This document shows positions 12,674-18,265 of a stretch of 32,000 nucleotides of DNA, piece by piece (within the stretch, counting starts at the first letter, position 1; every line of letters starts with the position of its first letter). Both the position numbers and the translations under genes were made by a program. This DNA comes from Fibrobacter succinogenes subsp. succinogenes S85 (lineage in GTDB: Bacteria; Fibrobacterota; Fibrobacteria; Fibrobacterales; Fibrobacteraceae). Below the pieces are notes generated by a model. The model was given only the letters and a program-made list of their open reading frames with translations. It did not search any database and was not told the DNA's origin. The stretch is from positions 2,190,001-2,222,000 of the forward strand of contig NC_017448.1 of assembly GCF_000146505.1 (NCBI RefSeq), read 5' to 3'.

Positions 12674-13672
12674 TTAGCGATTGTCCATTATTTCCTGGAT
12701 TCTTGTCAGGTCGTCCATGGAATAATAGTTGATGACGATGGTGCCTCTAGTCTGGTCCTTGGCGTTCGGGTTGAGTGCGACCTTTGTACCGAAGAATGTT
12801 TCGAGCCTGTTTTCGAAGTTCTTGAGGTCAGCGCTGAGTTCCGGCTTCGGTCTCGGTTCGCTGCCGTGGACTTCCGGCATTTCATCTTCTTCGGGAGTAG
12901 ATGCGCCATTTTCCGGTTCAGCTTCTTTCGTCTCTCCCTCGTCTCTCGTCTGGGCGAACGGATCTTCACCGCGGGCAATAGCTTCGATCTGGCGAACGTT
13001 CAAGCCTTCTTCGATGACGCGCTTTGCGAGAGCTTCCGGGTCTGCAATTTTTTCACTGCAGAGAGCACGGGCGGCACCGCCTGCAAGTTTGCCTTCTTGG
13101 ATCCAGGCTTGCACCTGGTTCGGGAGTTTCAAGAGACGAAGTGCGTTCGTGATGGCAGAACGGGACTTGCCGACCGTCTTGGCCAAGTCGTCGTGCGTGT
13201 AGTTGTGGTTGTCGATCAACTGCTGGTAGGATTGTGCCACTTCAATCGGGTTCAAGTCCACGCGCTGGATGTTCTCGATGAGAGCCCATTCGCTCATGGT
13301 CTTGTCGTCAAGATTGTCGTAAACCTGAGCCTTGATGGTTCTGCAGTTGGCAAGTTTCGATGCACGAGTACGGCGTTCACCGCTGATGATTTGATAACGG
13401 TCGCCCACCTTGCGGACAGCAATCGGCTGGATAAGGCCGTGCTTTTCGATGGTTTCAGCAAGTTCGACAAGTTCATCGTCGTCGAAGAACTTGCGCGGCT
13501 GGAACGGGTTCGGGTCAATCAAGTCAATGTTGATTTCGACGATTTTCTGATTGTCCGTATTTACGTTTTCAGTAGCTCCGGTATTGTTGATGGCGTTATC
13601 GACAGAGTTGCCGAGAACATCGTGTGCCTTAAAAATTGCAGAGAGACCGCGACCAAGTGCTTGTTTACCCAT
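12674..13672 (-). CDS. parB: Chromosome partitioning protein ParB/Spo0J
   Basis: GRGLSAIF box, IQPIAVRK...YQIISGERRTRASKLA (ParB box/CTPase motif), an HTH region, and a C-terminal dimerisation domain after an acidic linker. Confidence 0.95.
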   Translation of the reverse strand: MGKQALGRGLSAIFKAHDVLGNSVDNAINNTGATENVNTDNQKIVEINIDLIDPNPFQPRKFFDDDELVELAETIEKHGLIQPIAVRKVGDRYQIISGERRTRASKLANCRTIKAQVYDNLDDKTMSEWALIENIQRVDLNPIEVAQSYQQLIDNHNYTHDDLAKTVGKSRSAITNALRLLKLPNQVQAWIQEGKLAGGAARALCSEKIADPEALAKRVIEEGLNVRQIEAIARGEDPFAQTRDEGETKEAEPENGASTPEEDEMPEVHGSEPRPKPELSADLKNFENRLETFFGTKVALNPNAKDQTRGTIVINYYSMDDLTRIQEIMDNR

Positions 13673-13686
13673 TTTTTAGTTCTCAG

Positions 13687-13786
13687 TTAGTAGTTAATAG
13701 TTGCTAGAATATTTAGTTGGCAGAACTTAGACCGCTTCGCTCTTAGAACTTAGAAAAAAATACTAAGCTCTAAGCTCTAAGTTCTA
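13687..13786. repeat. TAG/CTA-word palindromic spacer between parA and parB
   Basis: Plus strand: TTAGTAG TTAATAG TTGCTAG (13687-13707) ... CTTAGAACTTAG-A7-TA-CTAAGCT CTAAGCT CTAAGTT CTA (13763-13786). TAGAACTTAG (13744-13753) is complementary to CTAAGTTCTA (13777-13786). The parA stop (13784-13786) is the first TAG of the minus-strand array. Confidence 0.8.
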
Positions 13787-14569
13787 TTTTTCCTTATTCA
13801 GTATTTCTTCGGCGAGCTTCATGTACGACTGCGAGCCTGTGCTCTGTACATCGTAAAGGATGACCGGCTTGCCATGGGACGGGGCTTCGGAGAGTTTCAC
13901 GTTGCGCGGGATCATCGTCTGGAAAACGGTGTCGCTCAAGTTCTCGCGAACTTCTTCAGCGACCTGCTTTGAAAGGCTCAGACGGGAATCGTACATCGTG
14001 AGGAGGGCGCCTTCGATTTTCAAGTTGGAGTTCAGATTCTTCTGGACTTCACGGATGGTCTTGAAAAGTTCAGTCATACCTTGCAATGCATAATATTCAC
14101 ACTGCACCGGAATGAGCACGCTTGTTGCGGCCGTCAGTGTATTAATTGTGAGTAAGTTCAGGCTCGGAGGAGCGTCGATGATGATAAAATCGAACTCCTG
14201 CTTGAGAACGTTCATCACGCGTTCGAGTCTGCGTTCGCGGCTCATGGCGTTGACAAGTTCAATTTCCATGACGGCAAGGTCCGGTCCAGAAGTGATGACC
14301 TTGAGGTATTCAAGCGACGTGTCCAAGATGGCGGGCTTGATATTTTCGAGCGTGAGATTGTCCGGATTACCAGCCATGTCCAGAATTTCGTGGATATCCA
14401 TGTCCTGGGATTCCATGAAACCGAGACCTTGAGAGGCATTACCCTGCGGGTCCATGTCTAAAAGAAGTGTCTTCTTTTCAAGGGCTGCAAAACTCGCGGC
14501 CAAGTTCACGGCCGTAGTAGTTTTACCGACGCCACCTTTTTGGTTGCATATGGCGATAATTTTACTCAT
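13784..14569 (-). CDS. parA: Chromosome partitioning ATPase ParA/Soj
   Basis: Deviant Walker A (MSKIIAICNQKGGVGKTTTAVNLA), DMDPQGNAS, IIIDAPPSL. Confidence 0.95.
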   Translation of the reverse strand: MSKIIAICNQKGGVGKTTTAVNLAASFAALEKKTLLLDMDPQGNASQGLGFMESQDMDIHEILDMAGNPDNLTLENIKPAILDTSLEYLKVITSGPDLAVMEIELVNAMSRERRLERVMNVLKQEFDFIIIDAPPSLNLLTINTLTAATSVLIPVQCEYYALQGMTELFKTIREVQKNLNSNLKIEGALLTMYDSRLSLSKQVAEEVRENLSDTVFQTMIPRNVKLSEAPSHGKPVILYDVQSTGSQSYMKLAEEILNKEK

Positions 14570-15215
14570 TATTACCTCGGGTGACTAGAGCGTACACCTG
14601 TTCTTCTTCTGGAAGTTCATACTTCTGGATATGCACTTTCGGATCGTTTTCCAAATGGGCAATATTGTTGAAGCTCTTCAGCGTGACAAAAACACCACCA
14701 CGCTTGAGACCTGCCTGGGCGCGTTCCCAGTCGTTTTCAAAAGTCGAGAGGGCGCGGCAGCTGATAAAATCAAGGTCGGTGAGGCCGGAAGTTTCAAAGC
14801 GCTTGCCGACGACGGTCAAGTTGTCCAAGTGGAGCTTTTCCTTGACCATCTGCATAAAGTTCACGCGCATGTGGCGTGGTTCGACAGCATAGAACTGCAC
14901 GTTCGGCATGGCAATTGCAAGCGGAAAAACTGGGCAACCTGCTCCAGCACCCATATCTGCCCAGCGTACAGTGTCATCCTGAGTGGACAGTGTTTTTCCT
15001 AAAAACACAAAGGGAACGAGAGAGTCGGCAATGTGCCTGCTTAAAAACTTTTCAGAATCCTTTGCCGAAATCAAGTTACCATATTCCTTGGTGTCCACCA
15101 CCAAGTCTGCAAACTGGTAAAGCTTGTCGAGAGTCTCTTCGGACAGCTGCACGCCATGTCCCGAAAGGAACTGGTTCAAAAGATCTTGCTGCGCTTTGTT
15201 AGTTCTATAACTCAA
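14562..15215 (-). CDS. rsmG: 16S rRNA (guanine527-N7)-methyltransferase RsmG (GidB)
   Basis: SAM-binding DMGAGAGCPVFPLAI. Typical length and typical position immediately upstream of parA (8-nt overlap). Apparent TTG start at 15213-15215. Confidence 0.9.
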   Translation of the reverse strand: MSYRTNKAQQDLLNQFLSGHGVQLSEETLDKLYQFADLVVDTKEYGNLISAKDSEKFLSRHIADSLVPFVFLGKTLSTQDDTVRWADMGAGAGCPVFPLAIAMPNVQFYAVEPRHMRVNFMQMVKEKLHLDNLTVVGKRFETSGLTDLDFISCRALSTFENDWERAQAGLKRGGVFVTLKSFNNIAHLENDPKVHIQKYELPEEEQVYALVTRGNNE

Positions 15216-15242
15216 GTTTTCTCTTTTTGTGATATGGAAAAA

Positions 15243-15322
15243 TGTTTGGACACTTCGTGTCCAACATGCTCATGCTCGGTCATGCCGGTGTACAAGCACC
15301 CCGTCGCGACACTCGCTATCGC
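15243..15322. repeat. Three-hairpin element, copy 1 (GGACAC hairpin - linker - ACAAG-loop hairpin - small hairpin)
   Basis: TGTTTGGACAC-TTC-GTGTCCAACA (15243-15266), linker ..GCTCGGTCAT.., GGTGT-ACAA-GCACC (15287-15300), GCGA-CAC-TCGC. The same order and similar spacing are seen at 15895-15972. Confidence 0.7.
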
Positions 15323-15407
15323 ATGTTTGCTCCTTCGGAGCCAACTTGCTGCACCTCGGAAATGTCGGTAAACAAGTTTCCCGCCGCTTCCTCGGTTTGC
15401 AATTGTT
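15323..15407 (+). repeat. 85-bp direct repeat, copy A
   Basis: 84/85 identical to 15814-15898. Begins with the hairpin TGTTTGCTCC-TTC-GGAGCCAAC. Its last 4 nt (TGTT) are also the first 4 nt of parS at 15404. Confidence 0.9.
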
Positions 15408-15419
15408 TCACGTGGAACA
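15404..15419. other. parS: parS centromere-like site, TGTTTCACGTGGAACA
   Basis: 15/16 match to the palindromic consensus TGTTTCACGTGAAACA, and identical to the reverse complement of the Bacillus subtilis-type TGTTCCACGTGAAACA. Lies 190 bp upstream of rsmG-parAB. Confidence 0.85.
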
Positions 15420-15544
15420 TTTTTGACTATCATATTCCGATTTGAAATTTAGTATAACTTTTTTAGAAAACAATTAACAAACTCCCCCGCTCCCTAAAAT
15501 TCATAAAATATATGTTGATAACATTTTGATAAATGTTGAGAAAC

Positions 15545-15795
15545 TGTTAAGCCGAATGCTGCGAAATGTATGCTTGCATACATTTCATAGCTGAGGCGCC
15601 AGTTTCGCGCTTGCGCAAATGTTGTTAAGGCGAGAGTTGCGGAAAGCATGCTTGCATGCTTTCCATAACCGAGCCGACCAACATAGCGCTTGCGCAGAAC
15701 TTGTTAAGGTGAGAGTCGCAAAAATAAGCTTGCTTATTTTTATGACCGAACCGCTGAGTTCGCGCTTGCGCAAAAATTGTTAAGGTGAGAGTCGC
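15545..15795 (+). repeat. Tandem array, about 3.3 units of 76-79 bp, each with two CTTG-loop hairpins
   Basis: Unit landmarks TGTTAAG at 15545/15623/15702/15778. Long-hairpin loops (CTTG) at 15573, 15651 and 15729 are exactly 78 nt apart. The conserved short hairpin GCG-CTTG-CGC is at 15607, 15686 and 15762. The GAGAGTYGC motif is at 15632, 15711 and 15787. Confidence 0.85.
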
Positions 15796-15813
15796 TTTGT
15801 TTTTGTTTGGACT

Positions 15814-15898
15814 ATGTTTGCTCCTTCGGAGCCAACTTGCTGCACCTCGGAAATGTCGGTAAACAAGTTTCCCGCCGCTTTCTCGGTTTGCAATTGTT
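15814..15898 (+). repeat. 85-bp direct repeat, copy B
   Basis: One mismatch versus 15323-15407 (C/T at repeat position 68). Preceded by a half palindrome TGTTTGGACTAT (15804-15815) and followed by the GGACAC hairpin at 15898-15916. Confidence 0.9.
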
Positions 15899-15972
15899 AG
15901 GACACTTTGTGTCCTACCTCTTGGGGCTCAGTAATGCCCATACAAGTATGGGCGCTACATTCGCCCTGTAGA
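15895..15972. repeat. Three-hairpin element, copy 2
   Basis: TAGGACAC-TTT-GTGTCCTA (15898-15916), linker ..GCTCAGTAAT.., GCCCATA-CAAG-TATGGGC (15936-15953), CTACA-TTCGCCC-TGTAG. Same architecture as 15243-15322. Confidence 0.7.
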
Positions 15973-15988
15973 GGTTTCACGTGAAACA
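15973..15988. other. parS: parS site, GGTTTCACGTGAAACA
   Basis: 15/16 match to the consensus; only the outermost base differs. It forms the 5' end of a 105-nt structured module (15973-16077). Confidence 0.85.
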
Positions 15989-15995
15989 CAGCCGA

Positions 15996-16077
15996 GGTCA
16001 GAAAGCGAAAAAATGCTTGCATTTTTTTATTTGCTGACCGATGGGTGTTGGACTATGGCTTTGCTATAGTCCAAACA
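15996..16077 (+). repeat. Long A/T hairpin (CTTG loop) plus TGTTGGAC...GTCCAAACA palindrome
   Basis: GGTCAG-AAAGCG-AAAAAATG-CTTG-CATTTTTTT-ATTTG-CTGACC (15996-16039), then TGTTGGACTATGG-CTTT-GCTATAGTCCAAACA (16046-16077). Confidence 0.8.
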
Positions 16078-16078
16078 T

Positions 16079-16106
16079 ATAAAAAATCCTCCCGATTCTG
16101 GGAGGA
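16079..16106 (-). terminator. Intrinsic terminator of the 16132-16851 lipoprotein gene
   Basis: On the minus strand, the hairpin TCCTCCC-AGAATC-GGGAGGA is followed by T6. Confidence 0.75.
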
Positions 16107-16131
16107 TGTTCAAGAAGTTTAAAGCTAAATG

Positions 16132-17476: not shown

Positions 17477-17685
17477 GCAAAATATATCCACTTCAAATCT
17501 TTTGTGGTGGATGTATATCCTATCCCTCCTAAGAATATTACCTGGAAAGGGTTGTATTTGTTTTCGTAGATGTTGCTTAGGTCTATAGAAAAAGTGGAAT
17601 CCTGCACTGGATTTTCCAATACAGATATTTTTGCAAAAGCAAAAGATATAGAGATGAGGAATATGGTAAGAGTCTTTTTAATCAT
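17473..17685 (-). CDS. Small secreted protein, 70 aa (possibly the N-terminal part of a split gene)
   Basis: MIKKTLTIFLISISFAFA signal peptide. The ATG overlaps the stop of the VOC gene (ATGA at 17682-17685). The longer track ORF (to 17907) overlaps the VOC gene and is rejected. Confidence 0.5.
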   Translation of the reverse strand: MIKKTLTIFLISISFAFAKISVLENPVQDSTFSIDLSNIYENKYNPFQVIFLGGIGYTSTTKDLKWIYFA

Positions 17686-18086
17686 ATAGTAATCTCTATT
17701 CTGTTGCCTTCGGGGTCGAGGACGACACTTTCGTAATACCCGTCGCCGGTAGTTCGAGGTTGACCTACAATAGGAGTCCCTTCGGAAGACATTTGTTGGG
17801 TCAGGTGGTCGACCTCTTCTTTTGAACCGACGGAAAAGGAAAGATGGGTAAATCCGAGATGTTCCACGTGAAACATCTCGACAGTCCCAACATTTCGTTC
17901 GACACATATATCAGGGCGGTGCATGACTTCTAGGCGGGCACCATCATCGAAAGTGATGAATCGGCTGGTGAATTGTTTTGCTGGGTTATGGTAAATCGGG
18001 TGGACTACCCCGCCGAAATATTTCCGGTAGAACTCGCATACCTTGTCGATATCTTTAACCCAGATGGCAATATGTTCAATCTTCAT
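17682..18086 (-). CDS. VOC family protein (glyoxalase/bleomycin-resistance/dioxygenase fold)
   Basis: MKIEHIAIWVKDIDKVCEFY...HLSFSV...YYESVVLDPEGNRIEI. Typical size of 134 aa. Confidence 0.8.
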   Translation of the reverse strand: MKIEHIAIWVKDIDKVCEFYRKYFGGVVHPIYHNPAKQFTSRFITFDDGARLEVMHRPDICVERNVGTVEMFHVEHLGFTHLSFSVGSKEEVDHLTQQMSSEGTPIVGQPRTTGDGYYESVVLDPEGNRIEITI

Positions 18087-18143
18087 AAAACCTCTATAAA
18101 CAATATACCTATTTCGAATAGAAAAAATTCCATGAACATATCA

Positions 18144-18159
18144 TGTTTCACGTGAAACA
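18144..18159. other. parS: parS site, TGTTTCACGTGAAACA (perfect consensus)
   Basis: 16/16 palindrome, located in the divergent intergenic region between the VOC gene and the 18298 gene. Confidence 0.9.
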
Positions 18160-18166
18160 CAATCAA

Positions 18167-18265
18167 GAATACCAAGCAAAAACATACTCGTATGTTTTTA
18201 TTTGGTATTCGCAGAGTGTAGGACTACGATGTAATCGTAGTCCCAACACATGAGCCGAGAGTCGC
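18167..18265 (+). repeat. Second copy of the long A/T hairpin + GGAC palindrome module, followed by GAGAGTCGC
   Basis: GAATACCA-AGC-AAAAACATA-CTCG-TATGTTTTT-AT-TTGGTATTC (18167-18210), TGTAGGACTACGAT-GTA-ATCGTAGTCCCAACA (18217-18248), GAGAGTCGC (18257-18265). Confidence 0.8.

Follow-up and report, generated by a model that had tools for sequence, protein, structure and literature searches.

Palindromes beside the parS sites of Fibrobacter succinogenes S85 belong to a folded, probably mobile repeat element

Introduction

Upstream of rsmG (rsmG-parAB) in Fibrobacter succinogenes subsp. succinogenes S85 lies a gene-free gap of 916 nt (15216-16131), and in and near it stand five palindromes, six counting a twin, whose outer arms look alike while their cores differ. 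What are these palindromes, and why do their arms resemble the outer bases of parS? All coordinates refer to the window, the whole stretch of 32,000 nt that was analyzed (NC_017448.1, forward strand, positions 2,190,001 to 2,222,000), except where genome positions are named. A sequence-only reading had taken the palindromes for free-standing units, with the outer arms as the base of an extruded hairpin recognized by a RAYT-like or hairpin-binding nuclease. We found that the observation is real but mis-framed, because the palindromes are the first hairpins (P1), together with insertion-site repeats, of a larger element. That element is in our judgment likely to be a mobile, fold-dependent and non-autonomous Fibrobacter repeat with a parS-homing lineage.

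Results and Discussion

The palindromes and the repeat they belong to

All of the palindromes were confirmed at the positions that had been proposed for them, and in each the inner stems differ in sequence while complementarity is kept (stem lengths in Table 1). The outer arms, namely TGTTT-GG/CC-AACA, TGTTT-GC/GCC-AAC, TGTTA-GG/CC-TACC, TGTT-GG/CC-AAACA and TGTA-GG/CCC-AACA, are roughly alike, but they are less regular than had been claimed, with a bulge or mismatch in every one. The literal pattern TGTTKGG-N6-24-CCMAACA had no match in the window or in the 3.84-Mb genome, and a looser pattern with K and M optional had 4 matches in the genome, compared to 8-15 in four first-order Markov genomes. 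The pattern is thus not enriched, which refutes the outer-arm pattern as such. The count of five members was also too low, since three further hairpins of like kind, GCGC-TT-GCGC at 15607-15616, 15686-15695 and 15764-15773, hold the P1 position in three minus-strand units.

When the gap was compared with the genome by BLAST, short matches were returned at many loci, with a core consisting of GGCTCGG-NN-ATG, a hairpin, and CGC-N'N'-C-N-CTCGCC. The units T1-T3, which make up a 78-nt tandem array and each carry a short P1 (GCGC-AA-GCGC on the minus strand), have an AT-rich hairpin capped by GCTTGC, and the unit is the reverse complement of the same core; a separate second family of 78-nt tandem units and dispersed look-alikes was rejected for that reason. 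Every palindrome overlaps the 5′ start of a covariance-model match (described below) by 3-4 nt and so falls into one repeat family, the exception being 18217-18248, which is tied to the family by its place in element Y, a paralogue of the model match X (73% identity over 82 nt) with the same two-hairpin fold. A context of this kind goes far beyond chance. The palindromes therefore do not stand alone; each forms the first hairpin of a two-hairpin element of 95-105 nt.

Fold and covariation

Read in its own orientation, the element begins with a short direct repeat, followed by P1, a variable stem often with a three-base loop closed by C-G, and by the 5′ arm of P2. Next come a helix (GGC/GCC), an internal loop (TC/CTC) and P3, a helix of four pairs with one bulged base. 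An internal loop that does not vary (ATG/CGC) leads on to P4, a variable hairpin with a GCAAGC cap, and the element closes with the 3′ arm of P2, whose end is the direct repeat's second copy. For example, in unit A, P2 consists of AACATGC pairing with GCATGTT, the last four bases of which are the downstream repeat copy. The same two-hairpin fold was independently predicted for six local units, including Y.

The covariance model, with 20 modelled pairs, was built from an alignment of 54 copies. In these copies 83% of the cells were paired (60.5% in shuffles), and all 20 pairs covaried with changes on both sides. The covariation score was 0.598 against 0.22; none of 500 shuffles reached it, and slid-partner controls gave at most 0.214. 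The 35 nt upstream of 91 matches (88 full-length ones plus B, B2 and X) folded with a mean of -9.2 kcal/mol, compared to -4.9 at random sites (p 6e-21). Folding energies were used here in place of an earlier hairpin detector, which passed 82% of random sites. The 35 nt downstream folded no better than random, and no downstream palindrome was found there that would generalize the adjacency to parS. P1 stems also covary: among 47 copies with a three-base loop, mostly C(TTC)G or C(TAC)G, 35-47 of the 47 were paired at each position with 4-5 pair types, compared to about 20 in shuffles, these copies having been chosen by a folding program that favors innermost pairs. The view of the palindromes as hairpin-forming elements with compensatory variation, rather than duplex binding sites of fixed spacing, was well founded.

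Distribution of the repeat

At least 89 model matches occur in this genome, which is a lower bound because 150 of 1378 candidates were scored in the count. Of these copies, 23 lie in a type III-D CRISPR (clustered regularly interspaced short palindromic repeats) locus at 2.34 Mb, at one fixed position between the hairpin of the CRISPR repeat and its last six bases and in sense orientation, and about 60 are scattered round the chromosome. Units occur in clusters within the window, where the gap alone holds 8 model matches (15263-16049), Y being added as a ninth by homology. All of the 24 other Fibrobacter genomes contain the element, with 9-122 matches each, while none of 16 outgroup genomes from other genera of the order and class had any model match. 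According to a crude gene model, 50 of the 69 copies outside the CRISPR locus are intergenic. The proposal that the palindromes belong to an intergenic repeat family of the REP-like (repetitive extragenic palindromic) sort stands. Searches of Rfam 15 with the window region and with the CRISPR-locus copies gave no match, even at E up to 5.

Two further motifs were seen around dispersed copies. Short runs of a 7-nt motif border many of these copies to left and right; the motif resembles TCTCGTC here (e.g. at genome positions 865813, 3482992, 3712775 and 986456) and CCTACTT in the relative G017 (L094-L101), and might represent a favored target or belong to a larger composite repeat. Copies at the unlinked positions 161492, 1899133, 267055, 2607847 and 2651591 have on their 5′ side a GC-rich motif (about 25 nt, beginning with ATGCGGGCGGGG), which looks like a second repeat family travelling with the element.

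Association with parS

With the 16-bp palindrome TGTTNCACGTGAAACA as the parS consensus, five sites with at most one mismatch were found genome-wide, all of them in the window (15404, 15973, 17860, 18144 and 20110). We then surveyed 21 Fibrobacter parS clusters, covering 138.6 kb with 79 parS sites and 64 elements. The 3′ end of an element abuts 27 of the 79 sites in one narrow register, 7 of them on both sides. Of the 64 elements, 34 lie directly against parS, compared to about 0.4 with elements placed at random. Many of the abutting copies, of types B, C, X and A, are orthologues in different species and keep the same register; a B-type element abuts parS in 9 genomes. A test for association with parS had been proposed along with the palindromes, and this survey shows such an association.

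Seen in the direction of the element, every local unit has TGTT and one further base before it and GTTT after it (Table 1). The AACA after P1, which is the first part of the 5′ arm of P2, is complementary to the TGTT repeat. The resemblance between the outer arms and the outer bases of parS is both real and causal: the TGTT(T) before P1 is a duplicated parS edge, and since the outer arms are copies of that edge, their likeness to parS is no coincidence. Only these outer 4-5 bases are common to the palindromes and parS, and the palindromes are not parS sites themselves. A TGTT no more than 32 nt 5′ of where the model begins was present in 27 of the 34 parS-abutting copies across the genus, in 13 of the 30 non-abutting copies of the parS regions, many of which are chain members, and in 4 of 61 dispersed copies of this genome. 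With so few dispersed copies carrying it, and with the full motif of the sequence-only reading at 1-2 of 69 copies, the outer arms are not a family-wide recognition motif.

Presence/absence polymorphism and insertion junctions

Comparison with close relatives showed that the element differs in presence between genomes. Alignment of window positions 17820-18200 with the relative G018 gave three junctions. To the left of the intragenic parS at 17860, G018 carries an A-type element flanked by ATGTT on both sides, where the window has a single ATGTT leading into parS. To the right of the same site, G018 has an X-type element with a duplicated flank, AAACA on both sides, and the window has a 17-nt remnant-like stretch. 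At the orthologue of the parS at 18144, another A-type element is present in G018, facing the other way and again with AAACA on both sides, while in the window parS runs directly into the flank. At all three junctions the 3′ end of the element points towards parS, parS is intact, and 4-5 outer parS bases occur twice. The new A-type copies in G018 thus stand at two different parS edges, in opposite orientations and about 2.5 kb from the A unit. Judging from this alignment, 17860-17892 is a putative empty or remnant site for two elements present in G018, and the G018 insertions appear to show a process that is still going on.

Polymorphism extends beyond the parS sites. A 146-nt stretch with a copy at genome positions 1,696,938-1,697,083 is absent from the orthologous site of G018, and three other species have 40 unrelated nt at that locus. 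The T array consists of three units in this genome and of one in G018 (L074:1158-1227), the rest of the gap being 98-99% identical. In G017, near-identical copies of 115-130 nt lie on many contigs; no larger or insertion sequence (IS)-sized parent unit was found around these recent copies. Outside the CRISPR locus, 17 of 69 copies repeat the final 4 nt of P2 at the 5′ foot of P1, compared to 7.7 with shuffled partners (maximum 15 in 1000 shuffles). Dispersed copies mostly have TTG or TTTG at both ends and CAA(A) after P1. This covariation of the bases after P1 with the flanking target suggests that targets may be chosen by base pairing.

One newly inserted copy of G018 (L074:3774-3841, minus strand) combines A-type P2 and P3 arms with a T-type AT-rich P4 hairpin, which suggests that family members exchange modules. 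The VOC/glyoxalase gene with the intragenic parS encodes 134 aa here (17682-18086) and 186 aa in G018 (L074:3147-3707, minus strand), where the two elements flanking parS add 52 codons in mid-domain without a stop; this could be chance, the probability being about 8% for 52 codons. The stretch 17876-17892 lies in coding sequence and resembles the end of an X-type P1 plus a repeat copy, and is possibly the scar of an imprecisely lost element.

Proposed course of insertion

The mobile, fold-dependent reading draws on the observed family, fold, distribution, polymorphism, duplicated flank and parS association. The element would be non-autonomous and would spread by a copy-and-insert reaction that requires its fold, so that pairing would be kept while the sequence drifts. 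It would enter a short target that afterwards flanks it on both sides, the target of the lineage in the window being TGTT(T), the outer bases of parS. The 3′ target copy would stay joined to the rest of parS, which is thereby regenerated, and would pair with the AACA after P1 to close P2. The 5′ copy could pair with the same AACA instead, lengthening P1 into the palindrome with outer arms that was first noticed. Each insertion would also make a new TGTTT upstream, a landing site for further copies, and serial insertion of this kind would give the head-to-tail chains that run towards parS: A, B and parS1; the remnant, B2, C and parS2, with X adjoining from the opposite side; and Y next to parS3.

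A more specific proposal, which we regard as tentative and rather doubtful, is that the element carries its own guide in the 4-5 bases that follow the P1 foot, which would choose the insertion site by base pairing. The guide, AACA in the parS lineage or CAAA/CAAC in most dispersed copies, would pair with TGTT at the parS edge or with TTTG/GTTG elsewhere, and the paired target would end up duplicated on both sides of the element. If true, this would be a hairpin-plus-guide insertion without a Y1 transposase, in which one lineage homes to a centromere site and regenerates it, while other lineages have reached CRISPR repeats and, in frame, a protein gene.

Alternative explanations

The units might instead serve the host, as structured RNA or DNA modules under selection. 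The parS-flanking copies would in that case belong to the centromere region, for instance insulating or terminating transcription so as to protect ParB nucleation, or helping ParB or SMC to load, and the flanking repeats would be explained solely by the pairing needs of P1 and P2. The recurrence of parS-abutting types B, C, X and A across many species in the same register would fit this, as would the sequence conservation of the internal loops, the intact parS at insertions, and the single position and orientation of the 23 CRISPR-repeat copies. We nevertheless consider a host function unlikely, given that 2 of the 5 parS sites here and 52 of 79 across the genus have no element, that occupancy differs between this genome and G018 at orthologous parS sites, that the majority of copies are distant from parS and face either way with respect to genes, and that copy number varies from 9 to 122 between species. 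Far less probable is an origin by local duplication only, through slippage or unequal crossing-over between TGTTT microhomologies round parS and with no transposition. B and B2 are 99% identical and 491 nt apart, and the copy number of the T array varies between strains, both as expected from such events; they would account neither for the new G018 copies, which face opposite ways at two parS edges and lie about 2.5 kb away from the A unit, nor for the dispersed chromosomal copies or the near-identical copies on many G017 contigs.

The free-standing palindromes of the sequence-only reading, with a RAYT-like or hairpin-binding nuclease acting at their base, are largely refuted and very improbable. 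This reading is right about intergenic hairpins with compensatory changes, clustered and in both orientations, and Y1 transposase genes (140-170 aa, 1-3 copies) are indeed present in 10 of the 24 relatives (G001, G002, G006, G009, G011, G012, G016, G034, G035 and G036). However, the pattern shows no enrichment, dispersed copies do not conserve the outer arms, and each palindrome belongs to a larger conserved element. No Y1 gene (RAYT/IS200, PF01797) was matched in this 99.99%-complete genome, and no element was found within about 1.7 kb of the Y1 genes at the 10 loci checked in the relatives, so that the supposed association with RAYT or IS200-like genes fails. A REP/RAYT system would also sit poorly with insertions that carry a flanking direct repeat and show no replication-strand bias. 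Mobilization by an IS110 element was rejected as well: its DEDD transposase (PF01548) had no match here and was found in 4 of 24 relatives, whereas the element is in all 24.

Several points weigh against the mobile, parS-homing reading. Searches for Y1 (PF01797) and IS110 (PF01548) transposases did not identify a mobilizing enzyme. The three clean junctions come from one genome pair and one 0.6-kb region, and the polymorphic site at 1,696,938-1,697,083 has no clear flank duplication. The flank duplication of 4-5 bp is thus seen at three junctions and not at this other site, and a recombination core would look alike; the 5-bp flanking repeat is equally compatible with staggered-cut duplication, shared-core recombination or an element-borne TGTTT, between which the data cannot separate. 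The species are related and the abutting copies orthologous, so that independent events are far fewer than 34; the 27 occupied sites of 79 thus reflect a small number of old events together with some more recent ones, and such long retention could also mean function. The folded strand has left no sign either. Copies outside the CRISPR locus show no orientation preference with respect to neighboring genes, their replication orientation is unbiased (35 leading, 34 lagging), and G.U-type and A.C-type pairs are about equally frequent (29 and 26). By inspection, the ends of newly inserted copies are not inverted repeats of each other, and without terminal inverted repeats the element is not a classical MITE (a miniature transposable element with inverted repeats). 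Finally, the covariance model does not reach Y, and X scores only 15.7 bits.

Genomic setting of the window

The window adjoins the replication origin, the cumulative GC-skew minimum of the single 3.84-Mb contig lying at about 2.19 Mb, at the window start. The densest cluster of DnaA-box-like sequences (4 in 800 nt) is at genome position 2,184,450, about 5.5 kb upstream of the window, and oriC is probably just outside it. Table 1 lists the genes, parS sites and elements. Open reading frames (ORFs) of 65-73 aa span elements A and B, e.g. 15212-15433 on the minus strand and 15242-15445 on the plus strand. The reverse strand of A-type units is open in one frame, and the identical peptide was found within the G018 VOC protein. 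The ORF at 15212-15433, the only one scanned, had no Pfam match, and ORFs across the units were not accepted as genes but taken as open frames of the repeat itself.

Table 1. Genes, parS sites, repeat elements and flanking direct repeats in the window. Stem lengths in brackets are those of the palindromes' inner stems.
Feature	Position	Strand	Parts	Score and fold	Remarks
parB	12674-13672	minus			
parA	13784-14569	minus			
rsmG	14562-15215	minus			
Direct repeat TGTTT	15243-15247	+			5′ of A; left outer arm of palindrome 1; assigned by analogy with filled and empty sites
Element A	15248-15330	+	P1 15248-15262 (6 bp); P2-P4 core 15263-15330	39.4 bits, E 1.3e-11; fold predicted	last bases of core are the next TGTTT
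Direct repeat TGTTT	15324-15328	+			common to A (3′) and B (5′); left outer arm of palindrome 2
Element B	15329-15410	+	P1 15329-15342 (5 bp); core 15344-15410	38 bits	3′ end enters parS1
Direct repeat TGTTT	15404-15408	+			start of parS1
parS1	15404-15419	unstranded		15/16 consensus bases	first five bases are the 3′ repeat copy of B
Elements T1-T3	15537-15777	minus	cores 15537-15606, 15616-15684, 15694-15761	58.3, 60 and 55.4 bits	head-to-tail
Remnant	15796-15814	+			like 5′ arm of X-type P1, truncated by B2; inverted repeat with 16066-16085; by inspection
Direct repeat TGTTT	15815-15819	+			before B2
Element B2	15815-15901	+	P1 15820-15833 (5 bp); core 15835-15901	32.7 bits	includes 5′ TGTTT; twin of B
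Direct repeat TGTTA	15895-15899	+			between B2 and C
Element C	15895-15979	+	P1 15900-15914 (6 bp; 8 with flanking T-A and A-T); core 15915-15979	61.6 bits, E 1.2e-19; fold z -5.9	includes 5′ TGTTA; 3′ end enters parS2
Direct repeat GGTTT	15973-15977	+			start of parS2
parS2	15973-15988	unstranded		15/16	C abuts on left, X on right
Element X	15982-16077	minus	core 15982-16049; P1 16050-16072 (10 pairs, including one G.T)	15.7 bits, E 0.005; fold z -4.7	diverged, AT-rich; palindrome 4 is P1 plus both flanks
Direct repeats AAACA (as on + strand)	15984-15988 and 16073-16077	minus-strand element			flank X; 16073-16077 is the 5′ copy
Intragenic parS	17860-17875	unstranded			followed by 17-nt stretch 17876-17892 resembling end of X-type P1
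parS3	18144-18159	unstranded		16/16	Y abuts on right
Element Y	18152-18248	minus	long hairpin 18167-18210; P1 18221-18243 (10 bp)	fold z -7.05	paralogue of X; palindrome 5
Direct repeats AAACA and CAACA (as on + strand)	18155-18159 and 18244-18248	minus-strand element			flank Y; 18244-18248 is the 5′ copy

Significance and comparison with known systems

With this analysis, a set of puzzling palindromes is replaced by a testable genus-wide family of about 100 folded repeats per genome, and three features become linked: the gap filled with hairpins upstream of rsmG-parAB, the parS modules of 105 nt, and the structured inserts in type III-D CRISPR repeats. We found no description of the family, neither an Rfam match nor, among the papers searched, an account of it, and our literature search, which was not exhaustive, found none of a mobile element that targets parS edges while sparing parS. 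If confirmed, the element would bear on the multiplication and movement of parS near origins and on the effect of inserts on ParB loading and spreading, and target choice by base pairing would be of interest for the mechanics of small non-autonomous elements.

REPs are described as single imperfect palindromes of 20-40 nt with a conserved head tetranucleotide that flank their Y1 (HUH) RAYT gene (PMC6006769). Like the REPs and bacterial interspersed mosaic elements (BIMEs) of enterobacteria and Pseudomonas, the repeats studied here are high-copy intergenic hairpins that occur singly, in tandem and in inverted pairs, and conserve structure more than sequence. Unlike them, they form a two-hairpin unit of 95-105 nt with conserved internal loops and a flanking direct repeat, there is no RAYT, and no shared head motif was found among the 69 copies. 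With MITEs, the Correia elements of Neisseria and the BOX and RUP elements of pneumococcus, they have in common size class, copy number, intergenic location, presence/absence polymorphism and, at three junctions, a short flank duplication; they differ from MITEs in the missing terminal inverted repeats and parent IS, in the specific parS-edge target and in the extensive covariation. A 180-bp MITE within a Microcystis CRISPR repeat (PMC4852346) is a precedent for insertion into CRISPR direct repeats.

Of the IS200/IS605 family, IS608 offers the closest parallel to a guide. Its cleavage sites are described as being read by short internal sequences rather than by protein, with a target choice that can be reprogrammed (PMC3201880, PMC5934647). 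In IS608 a hairpin stands beside a 4-nt guide that pairs with the target tetranucleotide, and in the present element the 4-5 bases that follow the P1 foot show both complementarity to and covariation with the flanking target copy. IS608 makes no target duplication, requires its Y1 transposase and prefers the lagging-strand template, whereas the element described here has a duplicated flank, no Y1 gene was found in this genome, and there is no strand bias (35:34).

Rickettsia palindromic elements are small palindromic repeats able to sit in frame within protein genes. The two G018 elements in frame in the VOC/glyoxalase gene are similar in this respect, a single case that may be chance; most copies here are intergenic, which is a difference. 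Integron attC sites are defined by core sites (RYYYAAC ... GTTRRRY) whose AAC and GTT face inwards, and they are recognized as folded single strands. They too are imperfect palindromes of variable length with conserved ends, a compensated center and unpaired conserved bases. Inspection of the alignment showed no attC core sites, AAC and GTT being at the outer ends of P2, and no cassette arrays; an integrase was not searched for. The element fits neither REP/RAYT systems, nor classical MITEs, nor IS200/IS605 ends, though it is partly like each of them.

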